Shown: positions 21,635-41,308, counted from the stretch's first letter. The stretch is DNA of 64,000 nucleotides from Chlamydiales bacterium (GCA_022601445.1 JAJACP010000003.1:68556-132555); one strand, 5' to 3'. The notes: a model not told the origin generated them from the letters alone. Numbers and translations are program-made.

Positions 21635-21638
21635 AAAT

Positions 21639-21670: not shown

Positions 21671-21716
21671 TTTTTGGGAGAGAAGCGGAAGCGGCCGAGC
21701 TTTCGCGTGAAGGGAT

Positions 21717-21882
21717 TTAGACCCAGGAGGCTAAATGGCTCTGTCATCCATCTTTGTTGCAGCAACGTATCTGCTTCGTTTTTCTCCGCGGCAATGTCAC
21801 AAGACATTACCTTGTCGCTCACCTCGCATCTACAACACTGCAAAAAGCCGCTGCCACAGCCCTTTAGTCGCCTGGGTCTGAA
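21717..21882. repeat. ~165-bp imperfect palindromic element (MITE/RPE-like)
   Basis: Arm 21717-21774 (TTAGACCCAGGAGGCTAAATGGCT...TGCAGCAACGTATCTGC) pairs with 21826-21882 (GCATCTACAACACTGCA...CCTTTAGTCGCCTGGGTCTGAA); central AATGTC-ACAA-GACATT hairpin. Confidence 0.7.
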
Positions 21883-22100
21883 AGGTTGAAACTCGCGAGC
21901 GAGAGCGAGACGAGTAACCCCGCCCTGGAAGGGCGAATCCCTCCTCTTCCGTTTTTTCTTCGAAAAACCGTCATCGTCGGGACGCCTCGGTGCCCTACGG
22001 GCACTCTCGGACATTTCCCTTCTGAACGCTCCGCCGGAGCCTCCAGAAGTGTCCAATGTCCTCCTCTTCCGTTTTTGGCGGCATCTTTGTCCGATCTCTC
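21809..22100 (+). repeat. Direct repeat copy A (124-bp X segment and 45-bp Z segment) with two tRNA-Ser 3'-end copies
   Basis: 21809-21932 matches 23484-23607 and 22056-22100 matches 23608-23652. CGAATCCCTCCTCTTCCG at 21934-21951 equals tRNA bases 21617-21634; CCTCCTCTTCCG at 22060-22071. Confidence 0.85.
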
Positions 22101-22195
22101 CTCGGCTGTACCCCCCCCCAGCACTACCCTTGCCCTAGATCGAACAAATCTACTCACTAAAAAATATCATGGCATTTTTGAACTTTTATCGCATG

Positions 22196-23353
22196 CTAAG
22201 GACTATTAGAATTTTCAATTTCGTTTAGGTAATTTTCTAATCCTTTAACTGTAACTTTTTCTGAAAGTGAATAATTGCGATTCCCAGGGTAAATGACATG
22301 AAGATGCTCGATGGGCAAATCTTGCAAAATGCTGTGCATTGATTTTGTTATCTTGGGTGCGTCGGAAAACTTAAATTCAAAAGCAATGAACTTGCCCTGT
22401 TGATGAATCATAAGGTCAACTTCTGCCCCTGAATAGGTTGACCAAAAGTAGCAATCCTGGCTACGGACTTGATGGATACGGATAATTTCTTCGATTGCAA
22501 AGCCTTCCCAGGAGGCACCAAGCTTTGGATAGCGTAATAGTTCAGCGTGAGTGCGTAAGTTTAGAATAGAATGTAAGATACCGCTATCGCGCAGATAGAC
22601 TTTGGGAGCTTTAACTTGCCTCTTTTTTATACTTGCATGCCAAGGTTGTAATTGGCGAACCATGAATGTACCAGTCAAAAGATCCAGATAGCGGCGAATT
22701 GTCGTATCAGAGGCGCCAAATGAACGTCCCAGCTCTGAAGCATTAAAAATATTTCCATGGTAGTGCGCTAACATTGTCCAAAAACGGCGTAATGACTCAG
22801 GAGCAATTTTAATCCCTAAGTTAGGGATGTCCTGTTCTAAAAATGTGCGAATGTAGAAGTCTCTCCAATCGAAGCTGTCCTGCTCAGTTTCAGACAAGTA
22901 TGATAAGGGGAAACCCCCTCTATCCCACAGTTGTTGAAGATTATGTGTTTCACTAAAAGAAAAAGGGGTTAGTTCAAGATAGGCGATTCTTCCTGCCAAA
23001 GTTTCGGATGACTGCTTAATCAGGTCTCGAGAAGCACTACCAAGAATCAAGAATCGCTGCTTTAACTGATGATCATCAATGAGGACCCTTAAAACTGGAA
23101 ATAAGTCGGGTTTTCGTTGAATTTCGTCGATCACGATTAGACCCGACAAAGGACGAAGAGCCAGCATTGCATTATCTAATCTTTGCACGTCGATTGGATC
23201 TTCGAGGTCAAAGTAGTTTTCACGTGGAAAGTTATTTTTTAAATATTGTTTAGATAGCGTTGTTTTACCGCACTGGCGTGGTCCAAGAAGAGCCACAATG
23301 GAATGAGTCCGAAAATAACGCTCTATTTTCTCCAAAAAAAGTGATCTAAGCAT
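22196..23353 (-). CDS. AAA_14 + DUF4143-type ATPase with C-terminal PD-(D/E)XK-like domain, paralog 1
   Basis: GPRQCGKTT, IVIDEIQ, ILGSAS, ETLAGR, GGFP, KAPKVYLRDSG, EVDL...FEFK. Confidence 0.9.
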   Translation of the reverse strand: MLRSLFLEKIERYFRTHSIVALLGPRQCGKTTLSKQYLKNNFPRENYFDLEDPIDVQRLDNAMLALRPLSGLIVIDEIQRKPDLFPVLRVLIDDHQLKQRFLILGSASRDLIKQSSETLAGRIAYLELTPFSFSETHNLQQLWDRGGFPLSYLSETEQDSFDWRDFYIRTFLEQDIPNLGIKIAPESLRRFWTMLAHYHGNIFNASELGRSFGASDTTIRRYLDLLTGTFMVRQLQPWHASIKKRQVKAPKVYLRDSGILHSILNLRTHAELLRYPKLGASWEGFAIEEIIRIHQVRSQDCYFWSTYSGAEVDLMIHQQGKFIAFEFKFSDAPKITKSMHSILQDLPIEHLHVIYPGNRNYSLSEKVTVKGLENYLNEIENSNSP

Positions 23354-23356
23354 GAG

Positions 23357-23397
23357 ATCCTTGAAAATTCGGTATATGATACAGAATATTCAATGAT
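23357..23397. promoter_or_regulatory. Inverted repeat immediately upstream of ATPase paralog 1
   Basis: ATCCTTGAAAATTCGGTAT-ATG-ATACAGAATATTCAATGAT, 16/19 arm identity, 3 nt from the start codon. Confidence 0.6.
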
Positions 23398-23483
23398 TCA
23401 ATTTGTTTCAACAAAAAAAGACTTTAGTATCAATCAGGGCTCTAGAGCTTATGTCTTTGGGGATCAAATTTTTCAATGCTCCC

Positions 23484-23652
23484 ACCTTGTTGCTCACCTC
23501 GCATCTACATTGCTGCAAAAAGCCGCTGCCAGAGCTCTTTAATCTCCAGGGCATGAAAGGTTGAAACCCGCGAGCAAGAGCGAGACGAGTAACCCCGCCC
23601 TGGAAGGATGTCCTCCTCTTCCGTTTTTAGTGGCATCTTTGTCCGATCTCTC
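23484..23652 (+). repeat. Direct repeat copy B (X+Z) with a tRNA-Ser 3'-end core
   Basis: Diverged copy of 21809-21932 fused directly to a copy of 22056-22100; CCTCCTCTTCCG at 23612-23623. Confidence 0.85.
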
Positions 23653-23865
23653 GATAAAGTAACAATCTGCTGCGATCTACACCGTCCATATGCTATTTGG
23701 AACAAAACATGACGAAAAGTCTAGCTTTGCCTCATACTTCAGAATTACATAGCGCTTGTCGGGTTAGCAGACTAGAAATAATCGACAGAAGTAGACATAC
23801 CTCTGTTCTTGTATTGGGAAATACACACAAAATTCAGTTTAAGATGCTAATGCGAGGAAAAGATA

Positions 23866-24624
23866 ATGTTTCAGGAAATGGGAGGAAAAGTTGGTGTCAT
23901 TACAGGCGCAACTTCAGGCATCGGTCGTGAGTCTGCTCTATTGCTAGCTCAGCATGGAGTCAAAGTTGTGCTAGCAGGAAGAAATGAAGAGCGTGGCTCA
24001 GAGTTGCAAGATGAAATTTCTTCAAAGGGAGGAACTGCTCTGTTTGTGCCAACAGATGTTTCAAATTGTGCCTCTGTAAAAAATCTCATAGATACAGCGC
24101 AAAGTTCTTTTGGATCGATCCATTATGCGCTCAACAATGCAGGCACCGAAGGTCGCTTGGGTCCTATAAACGAAATGGAAGAAGAAGATTTTCATGAAGT
24201 GTTAAACACCAATTTAAAGGGAATATGGCTTTGCCTTAAGTTTCAGCTTCAAGCAATGGCTACTGAGGGTGGCTCCATTATCAATATTTCTACTAATTTA
24301 ACCCGGATGGCAATGCCAGGAACTGGCCTTTATACAGCCAGTAAAGCTGGAGTGGAAAGCTTAACAAAGATCGCTGCGATGGAATTCGCGGAACAGGGTA
24401 TCAGAGTCAATGCCATTAGCCCAGGTGCTGTGGATACGCCCATGATACGACGCATTTATCCAGAGGAAAGAGAGAGAAAAAGACTCGGTGCGACCAATCC
24501 CCAAAAGAGGATGGCGGATCCAAAAGAGATTGCCCAGGCTGCTCTTTGGCTATTTTCTCCGCTGTCTACTCACGTTAACGGAACTGTCATGTTCGTTGAT
24601 GGAGGAGGATCCCTTAGTAGCTAA
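23866..24624 (+). CDS. Short-chain dehydrogenase/reductase
   Basis: ITGATSGIG, NNAG, YTASK, IRVNAISPG. Confidence 0.93.
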   Translation: MFQEMGGKVGVITGATSGIGRESALLLAQHGVKVVLAGRNEERGSELQDEISSKGGTALFVPTDVSNCASVKNLIDTAQSSFGSIHYALNNAGTEGRLGPINEMEEEDFHEVLNTNLKGIWLCLKFQLQAMATEGGSIINISTNLTRMAMPGTGLYTASKAGVESLTKIAAMEFAEQGIRVNAISPGAVDTPMIRRIYPEERERKRLGATNPQKRMADPKEIAQAALWLFSPLSTHVNGTVMFVDGGGSLSS

Positions 24625-24674
24625 CGTGTATGTGTGTGCCTGGTCTCAAGTGAACCTTTTTGTGAGAACAAAAT

Positions 24675-25136
24675 ATGAAGCCCTATACTGCAGAAATTGT
24701 GGAGAATCTTCCAAAAAACATTGATGAGAAGATGAGAGCCGATCTCATCGCTTATGAAAAAAGCCATGGAATCGATTTCAACCATAAACGCTTTTCGATT
24801 ATTTTAAAAAATGATGCCGATGAAGCGGTGGGTGTTCTCAATGGATTTACAGTCTACGCCGAGGTGTACGTTGATGATCTTTGGGTAGACCAATCGTGCC
24901 GCAGGCAAGGTTTAGGGCGCCTGCTGCTGCAGCTCCTTGAAGAGCGCTTTAGAGGAAAGGGCTTCTATAACATCAATCTGGTCACCAGTGCCTTTCAAGC
25001 TCCAGTTTTTTATGAAAAATGCGGATTCAAGCGGGAGTTTGTAAGAGAAAACGTCCAAAACCCCAAGCTAGCCAAAACATTTTTTGTTAAGTATTTTGAT
25101 GAAGCACAAACGCAAGGCGTAGTTTCAGATTGTTAA
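24675..25136 (+). CDS. GNAT family acetyltransferase
   Basis: LWVDQSCRRQGLG, TSAFQAPVFYEKCGF. Confidence 0.9.
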   Translation: MKPYTAEIVENLPKNIDEKMRADLIAYEKSHGIDFNHKRFSIILKNDADEAVGVLNGFTVYAEVYVDDLWVDQSCRRQGLGRLLLQLLEERFRGKGFYNINLVTSAFQAPVFYEKCGFKREFVRENVQNPKLAKTFFVKYFDEAQTQGVVSDC

Positions 25137-25543
25137 GAGGCTCTCATCTGCTTCTCAAGGGTCCAGCTGTCAAGATAAGCCCAATATTCGATAACTTTTT
25201 CATTCTCAAGTCGATACATAGACATTCCTTGGTAAGTGATCGGCTTGCCCTGTGCTTCAATGCCGTTTAGCGCCTTTTGATGGGTGCCTGTGGCGCGCCA
25301 ATGGGAAACGACGATGTCGTTATCTTCCAACGTATGAAGCAAGGTTACATTGAGGTCAGGGATTGCCAAGATCCACTTTTGGATGGTCTCTGTCATCTCT
25401 TCACGCGATTTGAACTGCCCTAAAGGGCTGTGGATCCGAGTGGATTCTGAAAATACATTGGCAATCATGGCCAGATTTTTCTTGTTCCACACCTCTAGCA
25501 TGTATTTTTCAATGAGGCTCTTGTTCTTTGATTGGGATTCCAT
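25133..25543 (-). CDS. SnoaL-like (NTF2 fold) ester cyclase family protein
   Basis: EVWN, IPDL, W.ATGTH...GIEAQGK.I...G.S.YRL...KV.E.W. Confidence 0.85.
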   Translation of the reverse strand: MESQSKNKSLIEKYMLEVWNKKNLAMIANVFSESTRIHSPLGQFKSREEMTETIQKWILAIPDLNVTLLHTLEDNDIVVSHWRATGTHQKALNGIEAQGKPITYQGMSMYRLENEKVIEYWAYLDSWTLEKQMRAS

Positions 25544-25599
25544 TATGTCCTTGTAAAGAACGCGTGTTATGCGTATCTGTTGGTCTTAAAAGAGGACTC

Positions 25600-27651
25600 A
25601 TGATGACACGATACCGTTATTTATTACTAGCTCTATTCAGTATGGCAATGCCCATCCATGCTGCTACTACAATCGTTAAAAATGGCGAGACTTCAGGTCC
25701 AATTTTCCTTGGAGGAGACGATGACCGTATCTTAGTCGAGGCAGGAGGCGCCATTGAGTCGGCTGGGAACTTTGAGATTGGAGCCGAGCTTTTTGGAGCG
25801 AATGTGCTGGGGAGCAATAGCGGTTCCATCACCATGACAGGACAGGGTGCTGATGGAATGCGTGCTTCAGGGGAAGCAGCAGAAATTCTCAATATGGGTA
25901 ACATTACATTGACTAATGAGATTGCTACTGGAATGGCGTTGGGTGGAACAGATGTTAGAGGCAGCAACTCAGGTGTCATTACGGCCTTAGAGATTAATTC
26001 TGCGGGGATGTTAACTGAGGCTTCAGGTGGAATACTGATCAATAGCGGTGGGATCAATATGCTTGGAGACGATAGTGTTGGAATCCAAGATACTAACGCA
26101 TCCGCTAGCATGTTAATCGCCAATCATGGGGCGATTTTTACCACAGGGGAATCGGGGCATGGTGTTTCCATCAGAGGAAACAATCAAACTACGGTCAATA
26201 CAGGCTCGATTGTGACCACAAACACGCAGGCGGATGGAATTCGCTCCATTGTTGGAGTGAATCAAGTGGTCGATAATCGCGGCACAATTGTAACATTTGG
26301 AGATGGGGGAGATGCCATTTTGGTGTCGGGTACCAATCCAACAGGCCTCAATAGTGGAACGATCATCACCTCAGGCACAGAGGCTCATGGACTGCGATCG
26401 GGAGCTGCTAGTGCTATACTCGTAAACAGTGGTCTAGTTTCTGTATCAGGGCCTACAGCCGACGGTGTTTTTAGTGTAACTGCGGATAACGTACTGACCA
26501 ATAGTGGAACCATCCGCTCTTCAAATTTTGCGATCAATTTTTCTGGAACAGGTTCAACCGTTAATCTACTCCGAGGCTCGAATCTGCAAGGAGCGATACG
26601 CTCTGTGAACCCCCTCAATCTAAATGTAGAAACGGGATTGAACTTGGCTCTCACGATTCAGGGGGATTTTGCAGCACTCGGAATCGAGGCGCCGTTTGTG
26701 CAACTGGGGAGTGTGGTGGGCGTCGTGGATCCCACAGGGCTCTCTTTGCAAGCAGACGTGCTTGCCGATCTTTCTGACACCATCTTAGATGGTATTTACC
26801 GGTACCGAATCGGGAATTGTGGCCCCTCTTGTGGATGCGGGGCTTGGGTTCAGGGAATTGGAAGCGATCGAAAACGGAGCCATAACACTGGAGTCATTGG
26901 TTACCATAACTCTCAAGGGGGCTTTCTCATTGGATATGGAGGGAGTCAGCTGGGCCTCTTTGGGGGCGCTACGTTTGGAAGAGTGGAAGTCGATAGAAAG
27001 ACGCAAACAGCAGACATCAACACGTACTTGGGGGGAGTGACCTATGAGGGACGTTTTTGTGACAACTATGTGGGAGCAGCTCTTGCTCTTGGGTATGTCG
27101 ACTGGAGCAATGATCGTTATGTGATGAACAACCTTGCTCCTGGGGGCGTGGAAACAGCTAAGGCCTCAATTGATGGATTCTTCGTCTCTCCTGAGCTCAC
27201 GTTAGCGCGTCCATTTGGCTCTTTTTTCAGCAAACCCCTAATCTTGAGCGTTACTCTTCGCTACGCCGGTCTTTTCCTAGGAGACTATGAGGAGGAGGGA
27301 TCACTGACTAATTTCTCAGTCAAGGACCGTGAAGTAGATCTGCTTACAACCCGATTTGAAGCTGCCCTTCCCTTTGATCAGACGTGGACAGAGTGTTGTC
27401 GGAGCCTTGAGCCCTATGTTGGGCTCTTAGGTCGCTATCAAGTGGGTGGCACGCATATTCAAGGGGAACTTCTTGGACAGTCGCTGGAGTTTAGCCAGTG
27501 GGGACCTAACAACTTGGTTGCTTTTCTTTTGGGCTTTAGGGGAATTCAGTCGATCGGGTGCTTGGATGTGACTCTCAATCTAGAAGGAAGCTTTGATCAT
27601 GAGAGAGGTTCACGTATTCTCGGTGAGGGTGGTCTCGCTTGGCGCTTCTAA
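25600..27651 (+). CDS. Autotransporter with repetitive beta-helix passenger
   Basis: Signal peptide (RYRYLLLALFSMAMPIHA), ~10 NxGxI repeats, beta-barrel beginning near AWVQG and ending GLAWRF. Start at ATG 25600 after AGAGG. Confidence 0.85.
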   Translation: MMTRYRYLLLALFSMAMPIHAATTIVKNGETSGPIFLGGDDDRILVEAGGAIESAGNFEIGAELFGANVLGSNSGSITMTGQGADGMRASGEAAEILNMGNITLTNEIATGMALGGTDVRGSNSGVITALEINSAGMLTEASGGILINSGGINMLGDDSVGIQDTNASASMLIANHGAIFTTGESGHGVSIRGNNQTTVNTGSIVTTNTQADGIRSIVGVNQVVDNRGTIVTFGDGGDAILVSGTNPTGLNSGTIITSGTEAHGLRSGAASAILVNSGLVSVSGPTADGVFSVTADNVLTNSGTIRSSNFAINFSGTGSTVNLLRGSNLQGAIRSVNPLNLNVETGLNLALTIQGDFAALGIEAPFVQLGSVVGVVDPTGLSLQADVLADLSDTILDGIYRYRIGNCGPSCGCGAWVQGIGSDRKRSHNTGVIGYHNSQGGFLIGYGGSQLGLFGGATFGRVEVDRKTQTADINTYLGGVTYEGRFCDNYVGAALALGYVDWSNDRYVMNNLAPGGVETAKASIDGFFVSPELTLARPFGSFFSKPLILSVTLRYAGLFLGDYEEEGSLTNFSVKDREVDLLTTRFEAALPFDQTWTECCRSLEPYVGLLGRYQVGGTHIQGELLGQSLEFSQWGPNNLVAFLLGFRGIQSIGCLDVTLNLEGSFDHERGSRILGEGGLAWRF

Positions 27652-27661
27652 CTTTTAGTTC

Positions 27662-28798
27662 CTATACAAGCGAGAGTTGAGCGAGCCAGGGAATCGCCTG
27701 CTTGATTTGAAGTTTACTGGGCAAAGACTTGTCTCGCAAAAGATTTTTTACCACTTGAAGGTGTGCGGCATCGGGAAACAATTTGCTAAAGTGGGGAAAT
27801 CCTTTGGCGACATTACCGTTGCCCATCTTGACTTCGATCAAGTGTGTAGGGATTCCATCGAGGTTAACAAGAAAGTCAAGTTCTTGCCCATCCTTAGTTC
27901 TCAGGTAGTGGAGGGCTCCCTTGATTCCTTGTGTATCTTCTAGAAAATGCATTTCTTTTTTCAAAGCGTTTGCCACAATATTCTCTAACCGAGCCCCTTC
28001 ATCCTCTACTAGAGCGTGATCGTAGAAATAGAATTTGGGTTCTTTTTTCAGGGAGCGGTTCACATTTCGAGTATACGGGGTGACGCGGTGAATAATATAG
28101 AGATTTTCTAGAAGTTGCAGCCAGCGCTTGATGGTATTGGGATCACGCTCAAGGTCGCGGGCAAGATTGGCGTACGAAACTGTTGATCCCACTCTTTGAC
28201 TGAGCAGGAAAACAAGGGTTTGTACAGACTCAATATCTCGGACCGATGATAGGTCGATCAAATCCTGCCTTAGAATAATATCAATGTGACTCTGACGCCA
28301 ACGTTTGTAATAGGTTCGACTCCCTTCTAGAAAAGGCTCCGGAAATCCACTGCACTGCCATAGAGTTTCAAATCCTTCTTCTATACCGACATCCAAAAGC
28401 TGAGAGACTTCTTTTAGATCTAATGGATGCAAGCGGTATTGGAAGTAACGTCCTGCAAGCGAATCTCCCACTCTCTTGTGAATGTCTAGTTTGGCACTTC
28501 CGGTTACGACCATCTGGGGAGGAATCCCTTCGGTATCAAATACTCCTTTTAGCCAGCGTTTCCAGTTTTTCATCTTATGCAGTTCGTCAAAAATAACGAG
28601 CTGTTTCGATCGATCCCAATTCTTTTTTTGAATAGCTAATCGATCTTCGCTTGAATCGTAGTTAAAGTAGTCAAAACTATCATGAAGCTGTTTAGAAAGA
28701 GTGGTCTTCCCTGTCTGTCTTGGCCCACTAATTAAGACGATTTTTTTGGGCAGGTCCCTAAGAATAGAATTCTGTAGATTGCGTCTCATGCTGACCAT
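27662..28798 (-). CDS. AAA_14 + DUF4143-type ATPase-nuclease, paralog 2
   Basis: GPRQTGKTT, VIFDELH, VTGSA, DSLAGR, SGFPEP, KEPKFYFYD, ELDF...IEVK. Confidence 0.9.
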   Translation of the reverse strand: MVSMRRNLQNSILRDLPKKIVLISGPRQTGKTTLSKQLHDSFDYFNYDSSEDRLAIQKKNWDRSKQLVIFDELHKMKNWKRWLKGVFDTEGIPPQMVVTGSAKLDIHKRVGDSLAGRYFQYRLHPLDLKEVSQLLDVGIEEGFETLWQCSGFPEPFLEGSRTYYKRWRQSHIDIILRQDLIDLSSVRDIESVQTLVFLLSQRVGSTVSYANLARDLERDPNTIKRWLQLLENLYIIHRVTPYTRNVNRSLKKEPKFYFYDHALVEDEGARLENIVANALKKEMHFLEDTQGIKGALHYLRTKDGQELDFLVNLDGIPTHLIEVKMGNGNVAKGFPHFSKLFPDAAHLQVVKNLLRDKSLPSKLQIKQAIPWLAQLSLV

Positions 28799-28854
28799 TA
28801 TGACACGTATTCCGTAATAGTCAAGACTAAAACGGAATAGATGCCATAATGGTC
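28793..28854. promoter_or_regulatory. 30-bp-arm inverted repeat at the start of ATPase paralog 2
   Basis: GACCATTATGACACGTATTCCGTAATAGTC-AA-GACTAAAACGGAATAGATGCCATAATGGTC, 25/30 arm identity; contains TTGACT-N16-CATAAT on the minus strand. Confidence 0.75.
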
Positions 28855-28857
28855 GTT

Positions 28858-30561
28858 CTAAATCAGCGGATCGACCCTTTCAATTGGAGGTAGATGCCTT
28901 GCAGAACCCACAACCGTCCACGGGCTGATTCCTTGAAGTTGCGTATCACTTGGAAGTGGGTCGATGTCTAGGGACTCAAGTTGTGGCAACTGTCTGGCTA
29001 AGTGCCCTGTTTGATTAGTTGACAGTTGTGAAGCTGCTCTTGAGAAAATCAGATGACGGAGTTGTGTGAGGGCTTGCAGTTTTCCAAGAATTTCACTTAC
29101 GGGATCTGCATTGTGAGACGCCTTAAGATTACATCGAGTCAAAAGAGGAAGAGTGGCGATCCGCGTGAGTGTTTCAGGTCCTGCATATGTGCCGGATAGA
29201 TCTAAATCCTCAAGAGCTCTTAATTGTGTCAATACAGCCGTTGTTGTATCTGTCACATTATGGCTCCACCCGTTCAGGCTTAGGCGACGTAGCCCGGGAA
29301 AATGTGTCAAAAAGTCCGTAAAGTGCGTTCCGGGAGTAGGCATTCCAAGTGGGACACCTGAAACGACAAGAACCTCCAGCTGGCCCAGAGTTGATAGGCG
29401 GTGAAGGTAAGGACCGGCATTGTTGTATTCGGTCACCAATTCTAAGTGCGTGAGTCGAGTACAGGCGCTGACACAATCAATTTCTTGCGCACGCAAGGAG
29501 TCAACGTGCACACGTAGTTTATGCAACGGTAGCGTTGTGAGAGGGACTAGGCGTGTGTCTGAGCGAGGAGCGGTGACATTTAAAGCGGCTACTTCCAGGG
29601 CAGAGAGACGTGTGAGCTGCTCAAGGTTTGAGATCTGCATTTCTAGATGCCGCAAAGCAGTCAATGTTGTTAATATCTGAACTTGCTCTCCTGGAGAAAT
29701 AGTGGTTCCCCATACGTCAAGAGCACGCAATTGGGGTAGAGCAACAGCTAAAGTAGCTGCACCATCTTGGAGGCTTGTGTTGCGGAGCCCTAAGTACTCG
29801 AGACGCGTGAGCTGAGTCGTTGTGGCTAATTGAGCTGCATTAAGACCTCTTATCTTGTTAAGGCTAAAATGCTTTAAGGTTAGTGGAAGTGTGTGGGTGG
29901 TGTCAAAAGGGGTGGGGATATGGCTGACGCTCAGATGGGTGAGCCGGCTCAACGCTTGAAGTTGGACAGGAGCTAAAAAATTGCAATCATCCAGCTGTAG
30001 GTGCCTAAGTCGGGTCAGGTCTCTCCAGGGAAAAGGTTCTCTTTGGGATTGATAATAGCCTCTAGGATTTTTTAAAACCAAGGTTGTGAGCTTGGCTAGA
30101 AGGCGAGCCATCCCCTGGTGCTGAAAGGCATGTGCACAAGAGTACGTTGCACAAAGTGTTCGAAGCCCTTTTCTTCCTAAAGCAGCTAATATTTCCGGAG
30201 TGAGTTTTGTGCTAGAGAGTGTGAGACTTTCAACTGCCGACATGGCTTGGATACGTGTGGCAATAACAGCTGCAGGAGCCTGAGGCTTAAAGCGTAAATG
30301 TTTTGCCTGCGGGATCCTTGAACAGCTAGAGGAAGCTAAGCGCAGGACACGGAGTGCAGTAGCACCCGGAATACCGAGCGTAATGAGCTGTCTGGCGTGG
30401 CGGGCAATAAGAGGCTCTGGTTGAGCTTTTTTTGCAGATAGATAGAGATAGGTAAAAATACTGAGCACAACTGACACGGTTAAGGCAATCAGCTGGTTAC
30501 CGGAGATACAGGGGGGAGCGATGGCTGGCTGGGCCGAATTGGGGTCAAAATTGATGGACAT
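28858..30561 (-). CDS. Leucine-rich repeat protein with N-terminal TM segment (putative host-directed effector)
   Basis: Many LxxLxxLxL units (LTRLRHLQL, LSRLTHLSV, LTRLEYLGL, LRALEDLDLSGT); hydrophobic segment near residues 24-41. Confidence 0.75.
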   Translation of the reverse strand: MSINFDPNSAQPAIAPPCISGNQLIALTVSVVLSIFTYLYLSAKKAQPEPLIARHARQLITLGIPGATALRVLRLASSSCSRIPQAKHLRFKPQAPAAVIATRIQAMSAVESLTLSSTKLTPEILAALGRKGLRTLCATYSCAHAFQHQGMARLLAKLTTLVLKNPRGYYQSQREPFPWRDLTRLRHLQLDDCNFLAPVQLQALSRLTHLSVSHIPTPFDTTHTLPLTLKHFSLNKIRGLNAAQLATTTQLTRLEYLGLRNTSLQDGAATLAVALPQLRALDVWGTTISPGEQVQILTTLTALRHLEMQISNLEQLTRLSALEVAALNVTAPRSDTRLVPLTTLPLHKLRVHVDSLRAQEIDCVSACTRLTHLELVTEYNNAGPYLHRLSTLGQLEVLVVSGVPLGMPTPGTHFTDFLTHFPGLRRLSLNGWSHNVTDTTTAVLTQLRALEDLDLSGTYAGPETLTRIATLPLLTRCNLKASHNADPVSEILGKLQALTQLRHLIFSRAASQLSTNQTGHLARQLPQLESLDIDPLPSDTQLQGISPWTVVGSARHLPPIERVDPLI

Positions 30562-30626
30562 GATGAACCTCTCAATATTAATTGGCTAAAATTATAACAG
30601 ATTAATAATAATTTATTATTAATGAT

Positions 30627-32849: not shown

Positions 32850-32957
32850 CCAACGGAAGGGGGCTTTGATGAGTAGTCCAATTTTCATAATGAGCAGTAT
32901 ACCTGAATGGGGAAATATTCGCTTTAATTTGCTTGGTGTAGGTTCGATAGCTCGTAT

Positions 32958-33006
32958 CATAATTCGTACAATTTAGAAATTTGATTTCTAAATTGTACGA
33001 ATTATG
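32958..33006. promoter_or_regulatory. Perfect 23-bp-arm palindrome upstream of ATPase paralog 3
   Basis: CATAATTCGTACAATTTAGAAAT-TTG-ATTTCTAAATTGTACGAATTATG, ending 13 nt before ATG 33020. Confidence 0.85.
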
Positions 33007-33019
33007 GTAGGCTAGAGGG

Positions 33020-34189: not shown

Positions 34190-34221
34190 AATCAAATGGT
34201 TCGCTAGATTCTCCAACGTAA

Positions 34222-34355
34222 TGACACGGGGTGCCTGAACTAGGCTGAGAAATACCCGTATAACCTGATCTGGATAATGCCAGCGAAGGGATGTCTATTC
34301 ATCTTCTTTTCACGCATCCTTCATTTCAGGCGCTCTCAATTAAACGAAATGGAGG
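34222..34355 (+). ncRNA. TPP riboswitch with SD-sequestering expression platform
   Basis: GGGGTGC..GGCTGAGA..ATACCCG..AACCTGATCTGGATAATGCCAGCGAAGGGA. CCTTCATTTC (34318-34327) can pair with GAAATGGAGG (34346-34355), which covers the RBS of the next gene. Confidence 0.95.
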
Positions 34356-34360
34356 TTTCT

Positions 34361-35296
34361 ATGAGCGCTTGCAAAACACGTACGACTTTACTACTAAACT
34401 GGTACGCAAACCCGTACCACACACCGATCTTCTTGGGAAAAGCTCTCGGCTTCTACGAAGAAGAGGGAATCGATCTCGCGATTCTAGAACCGAACGACCC
34501 AAGCGATGTCACGGAAATCGTGGGACTGGGAAGTGTCGATTTTGGACTCAAAGCGATGATCCACACAATCGCAGCGCGCAGCAAAGGGTTTGCTGTGACC
34601 TCAATTGGAACGCTTTTAGATGAGCCGCCCACAGGGTTGGTTTCGAGGAAGATTGACTCATTTGACGCTCTAAGGGGTAAGCGAGTGGGCTACATCGGAC
34701 ACTTTGGAAAGGTCATTGTAGACGATCTTTTCGCGCACGCAGGGCTGAAACCTTCTGACTACACTCCAGTGAGGGTGGGCATGAATCTGGTGGAGGCGAT
34801 CAAAAAAAATCAAGTCGATACAGGCATTGGGTTCATCAATTTCCAAAAAGTGGAGGTTGAGGATTTCTATGGTGAATCGGCTTTTTTGCGCATCGATGAG
34901 ATGGCGGGTCTTGGGTGTTGCTGCTTCTGTTCGGTGATGATGATTGCGCATACAGATAAGCTGAAACAGGATCCTGAGCGCGCTTTAGCTTTCATGCGCG
35001 CCACACAAAGAGCCGCTGCATACACAACGGAAAATCCGGAGGAGGCTTATGCCCATTTTTGCGCATATAAACCAAAAATCGATACACCTTTGAATCGAAA
35101 GATATTCATGCGGACGCTGCCGTTTTTTTCGCGCACACTACTGAACGTGGAGAGGGATTGGAACAAGGTGGAAAAGTATACAAAGCACCTAAAGGTTGCT
35201 CCAGAGACCTTTGATGCCAAAGCGTGCTACACAAATGAGTATGTGCCTCGCTCCCCGCACTGTTCTGTGGAACCTGTCTGCCAGGCACTCGCATGA
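34361..35296 (+). CDS. thi5: THI5/NMT1-type HMP-P synthase
   Basis: LLNWYANPYHTP, EPNDPSDVTE, GLKAMIH (PLP-Lys and substrate His), GCCCFCS (CCCXC motif). Confidence 0.9.
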   Translation: MSACKTRTTLLLNWYANPYHTPIFLGKALGFYEEEGIDLAILEPNDPSDVTEIVGLGSVDFGLKAMIHTIAARSKGFAVTSIGTLLDEPPTGLVSRKIDSFDALRGKRVGYIGHFGKVIVDDLFAHAGLKPSDYTPVRVGMNLVEAIKKNQVDTGIGFINFQKVEVEDFYGESAFLRIDEMAGLGCCCFCSVMMIAHTDKLKQDPERALAFMRATQRAAAYTTENPEEAYAHFCAYKPKIDTPLNRKIFMRTLPFFSRTLLNVERDWNKVEKYTKHLKVAPETFDAKACYTNEYVPRSPHCSVEPVCQALA

Positions 35297-36018
35297 AGCG
35301 GGCTGTCGCAATTGCGGGCTCTGACAGCAGCGGTGGTGCAGGCATTCAGGCTGATCTACGTGCATTTATTGACAATGAAGTGAGAGGATCGACGGTTATC
35401 ACGGCGCTCACGGCTCAAAATAGTGTAGAGGTGAAGCAGATTTCTGTGGTGCCGATCGAGATGATTGTAGCGCAAATCGATGCGGTTTTTGAAGAGGGGG
35501 TGCCCGGAGCTGTTAAAGTGGGCATGCTCTACGACGCTTTGGTGGTCGAAGCAGTCTGTGAAAGGTTAGCTTACTGGAAGCCTTCTTTTATCGTAGTGGA
35601 TCCTGTGATGGTGGCGAGCTCCGGGGCTTGCCTGTTGGAGCCCTCAGCGATCGTTGCGGTGCGCACCCAACTCTTTCCTCTGGCCACGCTGATCACGCCT
35701 AACCTGATAGAAGTGGAGCATCTGCTGAGCGAGTCGTGTGACGATTTTGTCCAAGCAGGAAGGCGTTTACTGCAGTGGGGTCCAGGAGCTGTTCTTGTGA
35801 AAGGAGGACATCACAAGACAAGAAAAGGATGGGATTGTTTGGTTGCTGCAGGCAGTCCACCCTACTGGTTGAAGCAGGAGACTGTGTCCACAGAAAATGT
35901 GCACGGAACGGGATGCCGGCTGAGTTCGGCGATCACCGCTTTTTTAGCAAAAGGGCACGCTTTAAGAGATGCCGTTTTTCATGGAAAATCGTATGTCCAC
36001 AGATACATTCAAGGATAG
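35293..36018 (+). CDS. thiD: HMP/HMP-P kinase
   Basis: IAGSDSSGGAGIQAD, TALTAQN, VKVGML, VDPVM, ITPN, VKGGH, HGTGC. Confidence 0.95.
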   Translation: MKRAVAIAGSDSSGGAGIQADLRAFIDNEVRGSTVITALTAQNSVEVKQISVVPIEMIVAQIDAVFEEGVPGAVKVGMLYDALVVEAVCERLAYWKPSFIVVDPVMVASSGACLLEPSAIVAVRTQLFPLATLITPNLIEVEHLLSESCDDFVQAGRRLLQWGPGAVLVKGGHHKTRKGWDCLVAAGSPPYWLKQETVSTENVHGTGCRLSSAITAFLAKGHALRDAVFHGKSYVHRYIQG

Positions 36019-37003
36019 TGTGTCGATTATTGGAGGTGGCGTCATCGGCCTCGCCGTTGGCTGGCAGCTGTTGCGTGCAGGTATTGCGGTGACACTTTTT
36101 GATGCGCGCAAGCCGAAGGCGAGCTCAGTGGCTGCAGGCATGCTGGCTCCTTATTCGGAGATGTTCCGTGAACGGTGCCCACTGTTTGAGATGGGTCAAA
36201 AAAGTCTCGGTTTGTATCCACAGTTTTTAGAGGAACTGGAGGCCGATAGCGGCCTTCTGATCTCGATACACACCTGCGGTACGCTCTGGGTGGGGATTGA
36301 TAGAGATGATGCGCGGTGGTTAGAGAGGCTGCGCTCTTTTTGCCCGATCAAAGTGGAGCGGCTCTCAGGTGAGCAAGCCCGTGAAAAAGAACCGCTCCTT
36401 TCACCTAGAGTCAATCATGCTTTATGGATGCCGGGTGATGCGCTGATGGATCCGGTCTCTCTTTTAAACGCTCTGAAACAGGCTTTTCTTCGATTAGGAG
36501 GCAAGTTGATAGAAAGAGAAGTCAAAAGTCTTCCTAGTGGAGAGGTGGTCGTAGCTGCAGGTGTTTGGTCAGGAGATTTTGGACTGCCGGTGCGTCCTTT
36601 GAAGGGAGAAATCGTGACTGTAAAGAGTGATCTCTCACTGACACATATGATCCGCTCTCCCCGAGTCTATTTGGCACCTGGTCCCGCGCAGACCATCCGC
36701 TTGGGAGCGACCTCAGCAGAGCTTGGATTTGATCTAGATGCCAAAGGGGAGAGCGTGCGTACTCTCTTTCAGGATAGTTGGGAGGTGATGCCTGCCTTAG
36801 ATCAGATGTCGATTGTTTCAATCGATGTGGGATTACGGCCGCAGACACTCGATCGTCTACCCCGTATTGGAGAGAGCGAGAAGAGAGGAGTTTTTTATGC
36901 GACAGGGCACGGACGTGGGGGCTTTTTACTCGCCCCTTATACAGCTTACAAATTAAAGGAGGAGATATGCAGATATTATTCAATGGCGTGCAGCAAGAAG
37001 TAG
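35993..37003 (+). CDS. thiO: Glycine oxidase
   Basis: IIGGGVIG, AAGMLAP, PLKGE, GLRP, ATGHGRGGFLLAP; thi operon context. Confidence 0.9.
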   Translation: MSTDTFKDSVSIIGGGVIGLAVGWQLLRAGIAVTLFDARKPKASSVAAGMLAPYSEMFRERCPLFEMGQKSLGLYPQFLEELEADSGLLISIHTCGTLWVGIDRDDARWLERLRSFCPIKVERLSGEQAREKEPLLSPRVNHALWMPGDALMDPVSLLNALKQAFLRLGGKLIEREVKSLPSGEVVVAAGVWSGDFGLPVRPLKGEIVTVKSDLSLTHMIRSPRVYLAPGPAQTIRLGATSAELGFDLDAKGESVRTLFQDSWEVMPALDQMSIVSIDVGLRPQTLDRLPRIGESEKRGVFYATGHGRGGFLLAPYTAYKLKEEICRYYSMACSKK

Positions 37004-37155
37004 CAGAGAAAGTCTCTGTTGCAGATCTAGTTAAGGAGTATGCAGGGATTGCCGTTGCCGTGAATGAGAAGGTGGTTCCACGCGACAGTTGGGAAAAAAA
37101 GACTTTAGCGCCCAACGATCGGATCGATGTGATTGCCCCTTACCAAGGAGGTTAA
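36967..37155 (+). CDS. thiS: Sulfur carrier protein ThiS
   Basis: MQILFNG...AVAVNEKVVPR..W...DRIDVIAPYQGG (C-terminal GG). Start at ATG 36967 after GGAGGAG. Confidence 0.93.
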   Translation: MQILFNGVQQEVAEKVSVADLVKEYAGIAVAVNEKVVPRDSWEKKTLAPNDRIDVIAPYQGG

Positions 37156-37905
37156 GTGTTAACAATCGCAGGAAAATCCTTTCAATCGAGGCTTCTGATT
37201 GGTACGGCACGCTACCCTGATCCCTCAACGCGTCTCAAAGCCATTGAGGCAAGTGGGGCTGAAGTGGTGACGGTTTCGATACGCAGGATTCATGTAGACG
37301 AGCCGATGATTACCGATCTTACGGATCGGTTTTTTGTCCTGCCGAATACGGCAGGGTGCTTCACAGCAAAAGAGGCGGTTTTAACCGCACAACTAGCGCG
37401 TGAGGCATTGAACACAAACTGGATCAAGCTAGAAGTCATTGGAGATGAAAAAACCCTCTATCCTGACACCTCGGAGTTGTTGAAAGCAGCCCATGAACTG
37501 GTTAAAGAGGGGTTTGTGGTTCTTCCTTATTGTAATGATGACCCGATTGTGTGCCAAAAATTAGCCGATTTAGGGTGCGCAGCGATCATGCCTTTAGCCG
37601 CGCCTATAGGTTCGGGAATGGGGATTTTAAATCGCTACATCTTAGAGAGAATTCGGGAGCAGATCTCGCTTCCTCTAATTGTAGATGCCGGATTGGGAAC
37701 AGCCTCCGATGTGGCAATCGCAATGGAAATGGGAATGGATGGTGTTCTTGTGAATACAGCTGTTGCCAAGGCGCATGATCCGATTCAGATGGCACACGCG
37801 ATGCGCCTAGCAGTTGAAGCGGGACGATTGGCTTACCGGGCAGGACGGATTCCCTACCAAACGTATGCAACGGCATCCACCCCTTTACAGGGAGTGTTGA
37901 GATGA
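37156..37905 (+). CDS. thiG: Thiazole synthase
   Basis: [38 protein letters not shown]. Confidence 0.97.
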
Positions 37906-38399
37906 GAATGGCCATCACTCCCGAAGAGGTGACAATCGAGCAGATCCGCGCGGTGTGTGCAGGACCGATTGATGCGCTCCAGTTAAGAAGAAAAAAGTTA
38001 GCGGCAAAGCCGTTGTATGCGTTTGCTCAAGAGTGTCGTCAAATCACGCACGCAAATGGAGTGAAGCTCATTATGAATGATCGGTTGGATATTGCTTTAA
38101 GTGTGAAAGCAGACGGAGTGCATTTGCCTCAGAGAGGGCTTCCCGCATGTGTTGTGAAAAACGTCTGTCCTGCGCACTTTCTTGTGGGCGTGAGTACGCA
38201 CACCGATGAGGAAGCAAGAGAAGCGGCGGGCGCAGGGGCTTCCTATATCACCTTTTGCGCTCATCAGTTGACTCCTGAGTTAGTGCAGAACATCTCCGTT
38301 CCTATTTTGGCATTAGGAAATGTAACCGCAGAATCGATTCCTCACTATTTAAATAGAGGCGCTGCTGGGTATGCGGCGATCAGGCTATTTTTTTCATGA
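37902..38399 (+). CDS. tenI: Thiazole tautomerase TenI-like / ThiE paralog
   Basis: LQLR.K, LIMNDR.D, ADGVHLP, VGVSTH; lacks ThiE's T-x-T-K phosphate loop. Confidence 0.65.
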
Positions 38400-38989
38400 A
38401 AGGAATTTACTTGATTACAGACTCTCTCTCGATTCTCGAAAAGGTGATTCACACGGGAATTGGAGCGGTTCAATTCCGTGACAAAGGGAGTTTAGACTTC
38501 ACAAAAGTAGAAAAGATGCGACAGCTCTGCGCTCAGCATCATGTGCCCTTTGTTGTCAACGATCGGGTGGATTTAGCACTTCTTTTAAACGCCGATGGCG
38601 TCCATTTAGGGCAAGACGATTTTCCGGTGAGAAAAGCGCGTGAGCAACTGGGAAAAGAGGTGATTATAGGTGTGACAGCTCCTACGCTAACGAAGATCTT
38701 TAAGGCCACTGAAGAGGGAGCTGATTATGTAGGTGTCGGACATTTTTATCCCTCCTCTACCAAAGAAAAAAAAGGGAGACCCCTCACGCTCGACATGTTA
38801 GAGGAGCTATGCCGATACTCTCCTCTTCCTGTGGTGGCAATTGGTGGAATCCGTTTAGAACATCTTCTCGACATGAAAAAAAGGGGAGCCAAAAGCGTGG
38901 CTATCTGTTCAGCGATTGCAGACGCTCTCTCACCAACAAAAACCGCAATAGACATGGTAAACAGATGGAACGGTACGCACAACAAATAA
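38396..38989 (+). CDS. thiE: Thiamine-phosphate synthase
   Basis: VQFRDK, VNDRVD, DGVHLGQDD, GADYVGVG..YPSSTK, VAIGGI. Confidence 0.93.
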   Translation: MKGIYLITDSLSILEKVIHTGIGAVQFRDKGSLDFTKVEKMRQLCAQHHVPFVVNDRVDLALLLNADGVHLGQDDFPVRKAREQLGKEVIIGVTAPTLTKIFKATEEGADYVGVGHFYPSSTKEKKGRPLTLDMLEELCRYSPLPVVAIGGIRLEHLLDMKKRGAKSVAICSAIADALSPTKTAIDMVNRWNGTHNK

Positions 38990-39930
38990 AACTGGCCGGT
39001 TTTGGAGAGGAGAAGCAGGAGGTGCTTAAGCGAGGAAAAGTCCTTGTAGTGGGTGCTGGAGGACTTGGGTGCGCTGTTTTACAAACTCTCACAGCGATGG
39101 GCGTGGGAACGTTGGGTATTGCCGACGGAGATAGTGTCTCTTTGAGTAATCTCTCCAGGCAGGTTCTCTACACTCCCGAGGATGTCGGAAAACCTAAAAA
39201 CTGTAGTGCGCGTGCACGACTGAGGCAGCAAAATCCCGATGTGCTGATTGAAACATATGAGTGGCTTACTTCAGAGAATGCACTTAGAACGATTCAATCG
39301 TACCAATTGGTGGTGGATGCTTCTGATAATTTTACCACCCGCTATCTAATCAATGACGTCTGTGTCTCTTTAGGTCTTCCTTTTGTTGTGGGAGCTGTGG
39401 ACGCCTTTTCGGGTCACGTCTCTACGTTTAATTGGCAGGGAAGTCCTACCTACAGAGATCTTTTTCCCACTCTTTGTTACTGTAACAGTTGTGAGGTGCA
39501 GGGTGTGTTGGGTGTGCTTCCCAATCTCATCGGGCAGCTCCAAGCCTTGGAGGTCATCAAGATCATAACGGGTCTTGACACTCCCTTGGCAGGTCAGTTA
39601 CTATGCTTTGATGGAAAAACTTTCAAGACGGTGACCTATTCAAAACAGGAGTTTTCTGTGGTTAAGACCATTGCCTATTCGGAGCTGGAGACACTACATG
39701 AGTATCAGCTTGTGGATGTCCGCACAGTAGAGGAGAGAGAGGCATTTCATATTGGCGGCATGCACCCTCTGGATATGGACAAGCTCGATCCCAGTAAGCC
39801 AATTGTAGTCTATTGCCGAAGAGGGGTGAGAAGTTTGAAAGTGGCGAAGCAAATTGAAAAAAAATGGCCCGCAAGTGAGGTCTACTCGTTAGAGGGAGGT
39901 GTTGAACATTTGAGGCAAAAGTCCGGCTAA
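38965..39930 (+). CDS. thiF: ThiF/MoeB adenylyltransferase with C-terminal rhodanese domain
   Basis: RYAQQI, VVGAGGLG, D.DSVSLSNLSRQ, DNF.TRY.IND; then VDVR..E, YCRRG.RS, SLEGG. Confidence 0.9.
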   Translation: MERYAQQIKLAGFGEEKQEVLKRGKVLVVGAGGLGCAVLQTLTAMGVGTLGIADGDSVSLSNLSRQVLYTPEDVGKPKNCSARARLRQQNPDVLIETYEWLTSENALRTIQSYQLVVDASDNFTTRYLINDVCVSLGLPFVVGAVDAFSGHVSTFNWQGSPTYRDLFPTLCYCNSCEVQGVLGVLPNLIGQLQALEVIKIITGLDTPLAGQLLCFDGKTFKTVTYSKQEFSVVKTIAYSELETLHEYQLVDVRTVEEREAFHIGGMHPLDMDKLDPSKPIVVYCRRGVRSLKVAKQIEKKWPASEVYSLEGGVEHLRQKSG

Positions 39931-41211
39931 ATACAAGGGATAATACCGCTTTGTGCCTGCACGGGAAAGAGGCCTAGCACTTAAGATGACTTGGTTTTTA
40001 GGGTGGTACTTCTCGGTATATTGATGCAGACTTTTGGTTTTGGTCACTTTGCCTGCCTTCACTTCAAGGGGAATGACCTCTCCCCCAATTTCAATCAAAA
40101 ACTCCACTTCTGTGTGCTTTTCTACCCAGGAAAAAAGAGGTTTATTCATTGAGCCAAGCAGTTCTTGAGCGACAAAGTTTTCAGCAAAATATCCCTTATA
40201 GCTCCCGTAGTCGTAGTCTAGAATGACTTTTGGAGAGAGTCCGCTCATGGAGCCCAACATCCCAATGTCAAAGAGCAGCAATTTGAATGCATTTTCTTTT
40301 GAGTGGGCATACAACGGCACCTCGCCCGAGCCTACAATACTGACCTTAATGGCAAGGCCTGCAGCGACCAGCCAATCAATTGCAGACGCAAGACGTTGGT
40401 AATGGGTAATTCCCGGCACCACTCCTTTAAACTTGAATTTTGCCGCCCCCCCCTCCATTTGTTTTTCTAATTGTGCGGGAATAGAGCGGAAAACACGGTC
40501 GATGTGCATGGCGTTCGTTTTCCCCGCGTGTTTAGCCATATCACCGAAATAGGCGGCGAGTAAGTTGTCTTGGGTCTCTCTCACCTTGGTAAAGGCCTCA
40601 TATAGGCTCTCTTTGTGGTCACAGTAAGTTTGAACTGCTTCAGGCATGCCCCCAACGATAAAATAGTGCTTGAGCAGGTGCCATAAATGCTCATGAACCA
40701 GTTCTGAAATCTGTTGACTCTCCAGAGCTTTTAATGATCTTTCTTCTCCCATTGCCATGAGAAATTCAACAAATGACATCGGGGATAAATTGAGTAGAAA
40801 GACTTTTCCTACAGGAAAGGAGACGGGGCCAAGATGAACGCCCAGAAGAGAGCCTGCACCACATAAAGCTAAGCTGGGCATATCCTCATAAAAATATTTC
40901 AGACTCGTGAGCGCCTTAGGACAGGCTTGGATTTCATCAAAAATGACAAGATCATTTTGGATGTCGATCGGAGTATCAAGATAGAAGCTGAGCTCTTCGA
41001 TAATCCGTTCAGGCTTCAGGTTTTCTTCGAAGAGTTTGAAAAGGTGGGGTTCTTTTTCAAAATTGACGTAGTGATGCGCAAGAAAATGGCGCGCGCCAAA
41101 CTCTTTGAGTATGTATGTTTTTCCAACCTGTCTGACTCCGGTTAGAAGAAGAGGTTTGCGTTTATTTGCCTCTTTCCACCCCACCAGATCTTTTAGAATC
41201 AGCCGTTTCAT
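39889..41211 (-). CDS. AAA_14 + DUF4143-type ATPase-nuclease, paralog 4 (long subtype)
   Basis: RKPLLLTGVRQVGKT, VIFDEIQ, AGSLLG, FPVGKV, VGGMPE, FKL.LFDIG, GYFAENFV, EVEF...LEVK. Confidence 0.9.
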   Translation of the reverse strand: MKRLILKDLVGWKEANKRKPLLLTGVRQVGKTYILKEFGARHFLAHHYVNFEKEPHLFKLFEENLKPERIIEELSFYLDTPIDIQNDLVIFDEIQACPKALTSLKYFYEDMPSLALCGAGSLLGVHLGPVSFPVGKVFLLNLSPMSFVEFLMAMGEERSLKALESQQISELVHEHLWHLLKHYFIVGGMPEAVQTYCDHKESLYEAFTKVRETQDNLLAAYFGDMAKHAGKTNAMHIDRVFRSIPAQLEKQMEGGAAKFKFKGVVPGITHYQRLASAIDWLVAAGLAIKVSIVGSGEVPLYAHSKENAFKLLLFDIGMLGSMSGLSPKVILDYDYGSYKGYFAENFVAQELLGSMNKPLFSWVEKHTEVEFLIEIGGEVIPLEVKAGKVTKTKSLHQYTEKYHPKNQVILSARPLSRAGTKRYYPLYLAGLLPQMFNTSL

Positions 41212-41253
41212 ATCCTTTATTCTATGTCATTTTATGCCTCATGTCCAGAAAAA

Positions 41254-41308
41254 TGACGTTTTCGTCACTTTTTGCTCCTGATTTTTGACAAAATTGTCAC
41301 TTTTTGCT
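41254..41308. promoter_or_regulatory. Tandem dyad boxes upstream of ATPase paralog 4 / mscS
   Basis: TGACGTTTTCGTCACTTTTTGCT (41254-41276) and TGACAAAATTGTCACTTTTTGCT (41286-41308), each TGAC-N6-GTCA, starts 32 bp apart. Confidence 0.65.

Follow-up and report, generated by a model that had tools for sequence, protein, structure and literature searches.

Four genes in one stretch of a Chlamydiales bacterium genome, each encoding an AAA_14 ATPase joined to a DUF4143 nuclease-like domain, carry their own palindrome, or dyad, at the 5' end. The stretch (hereafter the window) is 64,000 nucleotides long and corresponds to positions 68556-132555 of contig C23 in the source genome G000 (1.93 Mb, 37 contigs, 47% G+C). 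We propose, with a probability of about 0.7, that these dyads are arrays of self-operators, i.e. that each gene product would bind the phased palindromes over the core promoter of its own gene and so limit its own synthesis. The dyads are enriched upstream of the family, regularly phased, specific to the protein clade, under purifying selection, placed over predicted promoters and linked to the gene. An earlier note on the window (the original prediction) suggested that each gene and its palindrome may form a self-contained unit, either an autoregulated nuclease or a single-gene mobile element. Its interpretation is partly supported: enrichment, clade-specific sites, selection on the arms and joint movement of gene and dyad speak for a self-contained unit, and the position of the dyads on predicted promoters fits the autoregulatory branch.

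All four open reading frames (ORFs) match AAA_14 (E = 5e-23 to 2e-30; 82-106 bits, Pfam cut-off 27) and, after it in each protein, DUF4143 (E = 3e-21 to 6e-50; 77-169 bits, Pfam cut-off 28.1). They are also matched by the PADLOC profile hidden Markov models of the defence candidate PDC-S01 (best E of 3e-78, 1e-52, 1e-103, and 6e-135), with paralogs 1-3 scoring best against one set of these models and paralog 4 against another (best PDLC04786). Residue conservation was read from a 14-sequence family alignment, in which Walker A (GPRQxGKT) and the DE pair of Walker B are invariant. The same holds for D258, E285, E315, E330, and K332 of the nuclease pattern D...E...ExD...ExK, with D317 kept in at least 90% of sequences. 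The prediction of four ATPase-nuclease genes is thus upheld by both Pfam domains, the PDC-S01 models and the conserved motifs.

The AlphaFold model of paralog 3 (predicted local distance difference test 89, predicted template modelling score 0.90) comprises an AAA+ core and a helical lid, then a winged helix, and finally a nuclease domain of alpha/beta type. The winged helix of the model, made of helices 187-230 and a beta wing, lies between ATPase and nuclease, and the acidic and lysine residues of the nuclease pattern are placed on helix 280-298 and strands 315-332, as would be expected of a PD-(D/E)XK enzyme. Foldseek searches with this model give archaeal AAA+ ATPases as top matches (2qen, E = 3e-8; 2fna, E = 4e-7; template modelling score about 0.46-0.5), followed by clamp-loader (RFC), ORC/Cdc6, MalT, Avs4, Apaf-1/NLR, and the nuclease-bearing Cdn1 and VC1899 chains. 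A sequence search of solved structures with paralog 3 returns weak P-loop matches only (E about 0.6).

The genome as a whole holds 22 DUF4143 matches, 21 of them intact ORFs, so that the family total is far larger than the four originally described. The closest pair of intact paralogs shares 65% amino-acid identity and the median best match is 44%; judged from their sequences, the paralogs of this genome are old. Relatives occur in 10 of 50,697 phage records and 569 of 72,556 plasmid records, and a phage origin of the family was rejected because relatives are rare in the former and common in the latter. Within the phylum, relatives of paralog 4 are present in 128 of 301 genomes, with none in the 30 genomes of one family (f11; those listed are about 1.0-1.2 Mb), and a same-genus genome of 1.3 Mb (G004) yields nothing when searched with paralog 3 or with paralog 4.

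The family had been described in the original prediction as having no assigned function. This agrees with PMC3424549, where DUF4143 is tabulated as a PD-(D/E)XK family of unknown function, and needs amending in that PADLOC annotates it as candidate PDC-S01. PDC-S01 is described as the fourth commonest defence candidate across prokaryotes, with validation pending and tens of thousands of loci reported (PMC12988326), and it is counted among the candidate defence genes that occur most often in prokaryotes (PMC12988326; PMC13356809). A defence role of the family is suggested by the guilt-by-association approach of PADLOC.

Inverted repeats (IRs) are strongly enriched upstream of the family. Scores were computed at all positions (match +1, mismatch -2, loop 0-12 nt) and the best score from -120 to +15 of the start was kept for each gene, using 1676 crude ORF starts in G000 and, for the final counts, four family start codons corrected by the family profile. 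A score of at least 10 is reached by 14 of 21 family genes compared with 62 of 1655 other ORFs (P = 4e-15; refined starts), and a score of at least 12 by 11 of 21 and 28 of 1655, respectively. The enrichment outlasts a control for length: among genes with an upstream gap of at least 100 nt, scores of at least 12 are found for 7 of 11 family members and 18 of 557 others. The 3' flanks, by contrast, show no enrichment of repeats (2/21 vs 87/1655).

By eye, dyads can be recognized in 18 of the 21 paralogs, and many of these repeat a palindrome of 20-33 bp in tandem, two or three times, instead of having one dyad. Of 21 family genes, 10 have their best direct repeat (10 or more matches out of 12) offset by 31-34 bp; among the others, 49 of 1638 do. 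Elsewhere in G000 the paralog dyads have no further copies, save one extra on contig C34, and readings of the dyads as a regulon or as repetitive extragenic palindromic (REP)-like repeats were rejected on this ground.

We find that the sequence of the palindrome co-varies with the protein clade, as the original prediction had proposed. Relatives of paralog 3 were searched with a 6-sequence alignment and reduced to one genome per species, which gave 80 loci. These share 45-59% identity with paralog 3 and come from numerous bacterial phyla as well as one archaeon; two had too little upstream sequence and 78 were scored. IR scores of at least 10 are found at 36 of these 78 loci compared with 10 of 249 neighbouring ORFs, which extends to relatives the enrichment seen in the genome. 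When 37 dyads of the clade are aligned on their symmetry axis, they give the half-site consensus T(T/G)ACAAATTGgAAAT(T/C), some 16 bp long, whose information is concentrated in two blocks separated by roughly one turn of the helix. The half-site ACAAATTG..AAAT, which dyad 3 matches, stays at a constant distance from the axis despite about 52% protein divergence. Such conservation of sequence at a fixed distance around the axis points to a symmetric DNA-binding protein, not a hairpin. Half-site distance also correlates with protein distance in this clade (Mantel r = 0.42, P = 0.0005).

The clade of paralog 4 (29 loci from the same phylum, 55-95% identical) keeps a different site. At least one exact TGAC-N6-GTCA box lies within 133 nt upstream in 25 of 29 loci, and two or more in 18. 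In total, 46 such sites occur in 3857 nt of upstream sequence compared with 1 in the remaining 114,700 nt of these loci, and all 21 box-to-box spacings are 32 or 33 bp. Similarly, the closest trio in G000 (paralog 1, C4_6627, and C1_339701; 61-65% identical) shares the arm core CCwTGAAAAT.

Comparison with G005, the nearest relative of G000 (84-92% nucleotide identity) and the source of one of the paralog 4 clade loci, reveals that the dyad arms are under purifying selection. Between the two genomes 33 of 462 arm positions differ (7%) vs 100 of 571 other upstream positions of the same loci (17.5%; P = 3e-7), with the dyad mask drawn in G000 alone, a mild bias, and third codon positions differ at 190 of 1100 sites (17%). 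Dyad 2 is kept both in G005 and in the more distant G002, and the latter has two double substitutions that preserve its symmetry. Contigs of two further samples from the same study span dyads 2 and 3 and are identical to the window there, so the dyads are not artefacts of assembly; no strain polymorphism was seen in the contigs of three DNA runs compared with the window.

All promoters discussed here are sigma-70-like predictions from a consensus scan, and at dyads 1, 2, and 4 such predicted promoters fall within the dyad or border on it. For these three paralogs and for loci of the paralog 3 clade, the overlap of dyad and putative promoter is what an autoregulatory operator would be expected to show. 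In the paralog 3 clade, a -10 element ending 4-9 nt before the start codon is predicted in 17 of 77 loci compared with 5 of 646 control ORFs; 12 of the 17 have exactly 6 nt between the two, a predicted leaderless layout with the -35 box within the right arm. The -10 elements predicted for paralogs 2 and 4 would likewise be leaderless, each ending 7 nt ahead of the ATG (28789 and 41211). The TTGA hexamers announced for the centres of dyads 2 and 3 are both there. At paralog 3, a candidate promoter can be picked out by eye, with the central TTGATT followed 16 nt further on by TATGGT.

These data can be joined into the following mechanism. The unit would consist of an AAA_14-winged helix-turn-helix (wHTH)-DUF4143 gene whose core promoter lies within a single long palindrome or within two or three shorter copies, the latter phased by about 32-33 bp, i.e. 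three helical turns. These sites would be recognized by the product itself, with the winged helix as the presumed DNA-contacting part; symmetric dimers would line up on the same side of the double helix and might build up into a larger AAA+ oligomer. Once occupied, the sites would mask the -35 and -10 elements, and this would keep a potentially toxic ATP-dependent nuclease, which may act in defence, low and self-limited. Site sequences private to a paralog or clade would then spare the 22 co-resident paralogs from cross-regulation.

The rigid spacing of 32-33 bp, with up to three or four sites per array, invites another reading, in which the arrays serve mainly as a platform for assembling or parking the protein and repression comes second. 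An ORC/STAND-like ATPase would oligomerise on the phased sites and so gate its nuclease, and sensing or cutting of foreign DNA would rely on the same specificity or on titration of the protein off the array. The modelled fold, which resembles ORC/Cdc6 and STAND proteins and would do without a separate sensor domain, is in line with this, as are the length of the half-sites with their two blocks one turn apart and the nuclease residues, intact in 14 of 14 aligned proteins. However, the genome holds no extra cognate sites, and the data do not separate such a platform from simple cooperative repression; we regard it as unlikely. A broader form of the idea would have the private palindromes serve as the loading platform of a minimal ORC/STAND-like immune nuclease, held there as inactive ATP-dependent oligomers. 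The gene and its array, often leaderless, would then be a host-independent cassette working across bacterial phyla and archaea, and the 22 paralogs would be 22 orthogonal sequence-specific DNA sensors. This we put forward as a tentative and rather unlikely suggestion.

Several observations weigh against regulation of each gene by its own product as proposed above. Three of the 21 paralogs have no dyad (on C36 and C15, and C12_220778), and 42 of the 78 loci in the paralog 3 clade score below 10. The correlation of half-site with protein may be plain co-inheritance: once the rest of the protein is accounted for, that between half-site and wHTH is not significant (partial Mantel r = 0.14, P = 0.11), and the AAA+ region tracks the half-site better than the winged helix does. 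The promoters that the dyads overlap are consensus predictions throughout, and paralog 3 has no site above the threshold of the scan at the expected position. The mild bias of the dyad mask also belongs here. As for the nuclease, a study of Escherichia coli B challenged with T4, T5, and T7 does not list the PDC-S01 gene assayed there among its four protective candidates (bioRxiv 10.1101/2024.09.26.614923). Lastly, some palindromes stand without their gene, which also agrees with sites that persist independently of the gene. Dyad 3 persists in G005 without paralog 3 (94% identity), and in G000 an orphan operator and promoter are found on contig C12 (132130-132190: GTGGAGTcaaACTCCAC, TTGACA, and a second half-dyad) with no gene behind them. 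Several deletion endpoints, too, fall at or inside dyads.

The original prediction would have been contradicted by palindromes that stay behind when the ATPase is absent. Taken literally, this is the case for paralog 3 in G005, and a deletion relic explains it better. Homology with G005 sets in again 15 nt ahead of the paralog 3 stop codon, and these 15 nt are a remnant of the gene because the C-terminus of paralog 3 matches the length of its closest homolog. The state in G005 is therefore a 1172-bp deletion, and a reading of this slot as an empty site was rejected given the C-terminal remnant. Other gene-less palindromes also look like deletion relics, as they lie at places where a sister genome retains the gene or a piece of it. 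For example, on C12 (132050-132255) the dyads and promoter stay with 63 bp in the gene's place, where G005 has an intact family gene. In G005 itself, the gene on C7 has lost its first 414 bp directly after the dyad, and C12_7041 has lost its 5' part and part of the dyad; in G000, the family copies on C11 and C34 are internally deleted or contain stops. Long palindromes are fragile and act as deletion hotspots, and endpoints at the edges of dyads fit this general behaviour.

Such endpoints have also been considered under a third reading, in which the palindromes are recombination, insertion, or homing sites, with the gene a mobile cassette that lands or is copied beside them or with the nuclease cutting there. 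Indels end at dyad edges in the paralog 3, C7, and C4 loci, and the family has been transferred across phyla and domains. Dyad 3 in particular is a conserved piece between two variable segments, since G005 holds an extra segment of about 0.5 kb beside the permease. Furthermore, direct repeats of about 170 nt bracket paralog 1 near tRNA-Ser. Its slot lies downstream of that tRNA gene, and G005 has there a single repeat copy followed by a Schlafen AlbA_2/HATPase_c_4/wHTH gene (L014, G005:C2, 1234-2577), so that window positions 21549-23652 form a hotspot of variable cargo downstream of tRNA-Ser. However, near-identical copies are missing (at most 65% amino-acid identity among the 21 paralogs), the 3' flank is without repeat enrichment, and internal deletions leave gene fragments (C11, C7, C12_7041, and C34). 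The 15 nt retained in G005 are a piece of paralog 3, not target DNA, and the fragility of long palindromes accounts for deletions at their edges. We consider this reading quite improbable. An insertion sequence, transposon, or homing element is not supported on the same evidence, including gene fragments kept at gene-less sites, and neither is the predicted single-gene mobile element, whose gene-less sites look like relics; signs of transposition are absent.

Gene and dyads nevertheless move together: in G002, homology to paralog 2 is restricted to the gene and its dyad (27681-28861), and the gene on C19 with 61 nt of upstream dyads stands in a different context in G005. The claim that none of the four genes belongs to the conserved backbone is borne out for paralogs 1 and 3, absent from their slots in G005, and fails for paralogs 2 and 4, which are syntenic there. 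A segment of C32 that includes the paralog C32_74084 and its upstream region (73422-75482) is 97.5% identical to a locus of G005 (L026, G005:C15); this exceeds the 84-92% seen elsewhere and suggests a recent exchange. The 53 nt next to this segment have matches at the ends of six small contigs of G000.

That the dyads act instead as hairpins in a 5' leader RNA, hiding the ribosome-binding site or the start codon, is very improbable. The trio around paralog 1 has an AAGGA Shine-Dalgarno-like motif in the proximal right arm, downstream of the predicted -10, and dyad 2 ends within 4 nt of the ATG, as a hairpin of this kind would have it. However, mismatches across 50 dyads are of the G:T type in 16 cases and of the A:C type in 14, so wobble pairing in the mRNA strand is not favoured, and no Rfam family matches the dyads. 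Across phyla, the sequence itself is conserved beyond its pairing, with a constant spacing from the axis. Moreover, -35 boxes sit mostly at dyad centres, which would leave half of each dyad untranscribed, and the tandem boxes of paralog 4 reach 50-80 nt upstream of its promoter. Binding by another, shared host regulator is extremely unlikely, as the genes are solitary with unrelated housekeeping genes on their flanks and as co-resident paralogs have differing sites that follow the protein clade across unrelated hosts, the archaeon included.

The features of the four loci are listed in Table 1. A different dyad was found at the start of each gene where the original prediction had placed it, with the perfect inner 23 nt of dyad 3 extending to longer arms.

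Table 1. Positions of the four family genes in the window, with their dyads, predicted promoters and flanking repeats
Feature	Position (nt)	Strand	Evidence and remarks
Paralog 1, AAA_14 + wHTH + DUF4143, 385 aa	22196-23353	-	Pfam, PADLOC
Dyad 1	23357-23375 / 23379-23397		19-nt arms, 3-nt loop, 3 mismatches; weakest of the four
Paralog 1 promoter-like TTGAAA-17-TATTCT	23383-23411	-	Predicted; 9/12 matches; overlaps dyad 1; would leave a leader of ~23 nt
~170-nt direct repeat beside paralog 1, left copy	21809-22100 (21809-21932 plus 22056-22100)		Downstream of tRNA-Ser (21549-21635)
~170-nt direct repeat beside paralog 1, right copy	23484-23652		
Paralog 2, coding sequence from probable start 28789	27662-28789	-	ORF opens at 28798; Pfam, PADLOC
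Dyad 2	28793-28822 / 28825-28854		30-nt arms, 2-nt loop, 83% complementary, TTGACT at centre
Paralog 2 promoter-like TTGACT-16-CATAAT	28797-28824	-	Predicted; 10/12 matches, TG extended; inside dyad 2, -35 at dyad centre
Dyad 3	32955-32980 / 32984-33009		26-nt arms, 96% complementary, inner 23 nt perfect, 3-nt loop, TTGATT at centre
Paralog 3, 389 aa	33020-34189	+	Pfam, PADLOC, structure model
Paralog 4, 440 aa, separate PDC-S01 subfamily	39889-41211	-	Pfam, PADLOC
Paralog 4 TGAC-N6-GTCA boxes	41254-41267, 41286-41299		32 bp centre to centre
Paralog 4 half-site	41224-41233		In predicted promoter spacer
Paralog 4 promoter-like TGGACA-17-TAGAAT	41219-41247	-	Predicted; 10/12 matches; two boxes upstream of promoter

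The closest paralog of paralog 1 is C4_6627 (65% identity). Dyad 1 has the core CCTTGAAAAT in common with the dyads of the two closest paralogs, and the AAGGA motif lies in the right arm. For paralog 2, the true start is probably the second ATG, because the first is out of frame in the G002 ortholog and homologs begin with M-[RKQ]-R; dyad 2 reaches to within 4 nt of this codon.

The neighbours at the four loci are pheS and tRNA-Ser; an autotransporter and a leucine-rich repeat protein; an amino-acid permease and a thiamine operon; and thiF and an MscS-type channel. As these are unrelated housekeeping genes, the four family genes are solitary. The divergent permease ORF next to paralog 3 has its first ATG (32958-32960) inside the left arm of dyad 3, and its homology with G005 ends at 32930; the gene probably starts further in than this ATG. 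The extra segment of about 0.5 kb in G005 lies between this permease and dyad 3, contains an ORF, and is missing in G000 (L013, G005:C5). The thiamine operon (NMT1/THI5, thiD, a thiO-like gene, thiG, two thiE-like genes, and thiF) is preceded by a thiamine pyrophosphate riboswitch (34217-34308; 78 bits), which starts 28 nt past the paralog 3 stop codon. There is also a match to DUF687, a family linked to chlamydiae, and together with the autotransporter, the leucine-rich repeat genes and the small genome it suggests that the organism is an environmental one resembling chlamydiae.

Outside the window, a dispersed repeat of about 80 nt, unrelated to the dyads, fills the region upstream of the C36 paralog (G000 C36:59990-60070). 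It recurs in at least 10 other places, with copies 88-96% identical (C18, C5, C8, C34, C32, C33, C23:31329-31365, C2, and C22). The ortholog of the C36 gene in G005 has a different upstream region.

The family is among the commonest defence candidates, yet it has no known mechanism, and a conserved, clade-specific site array offers an experimental handle on it, as it predicts the cognate DNA. The arrays also suggest why heterologous assays driven by foreign promoters could be misleading. G000 alone has some 18 distinct protein/site pairs, which form a natural panel for the divergence of specificity and, if binding is confirmed, a possible source of orthogonal repressor-operator parts. A leaderless promoter layout may also help explain function after transfer between distant hosts.

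Among known systems, the closest is PDC-S01/COG1373 (PF13173 + PF13635) itself. The four genes have the same two domains, match its models, and occur as solitary single-gene units; what differs is the unusually dense set of 22 copies in 1.93 Mb. We found no published description of upstream palindromes in the text consulted from the DUF4143, PDC-S01, and COG1373 literature.

STAND sensors such as Avs4 (8dgf) likewise couple an NTPase to a nuclease effector, and Foldseek matches Avs4, MalT, Apaf-1, and NLR proteins. By contrast, the proteins studied here are of 378-440 aa with the nuclease at the C-terminus, and have no C-terminal repeat or sensor domain. Archaeal Orc1/Cdc6 genes lie beside arrays of origin recognition boxes (ORB). 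In its modelled form, paralog 3 resembles Orc1/Cdc6, PAB2304 (2qen), and SSO1545 (2fna) in having an AAA+ module followed by a winged helix, and by analogy each gene here would be accompanied by arrays that its own product presumably binds. The differences are a fused C-terminal PD-(D/E)XK nuclease and 22 copies per genome. A role at a replication origin was rejected on copy number and on cumulative GC skew, which climbs steadily across the window without a turn, so that nothing points to such a function.

The arrangement is also reminiscent of the C-boxes of restriction-modification C proteins and of toxin-antitoxin operators, where tandem dyads lie over the promoter of a potentially toxic mobile gene. 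The likeness is an analogy of logic only, i.e. tandem dyads on a promoter and presumed self-limited synthesis. Neither the four proteins nor their neighbouring genes include a small Xre-type helix-turn-helix controller. In place of such a separate regulator, the presumed binder is the ATPase-nuclease itself, and its sites are longer (~22-60 bp), phased by 32-33 bp, and present in up to three or four copies.

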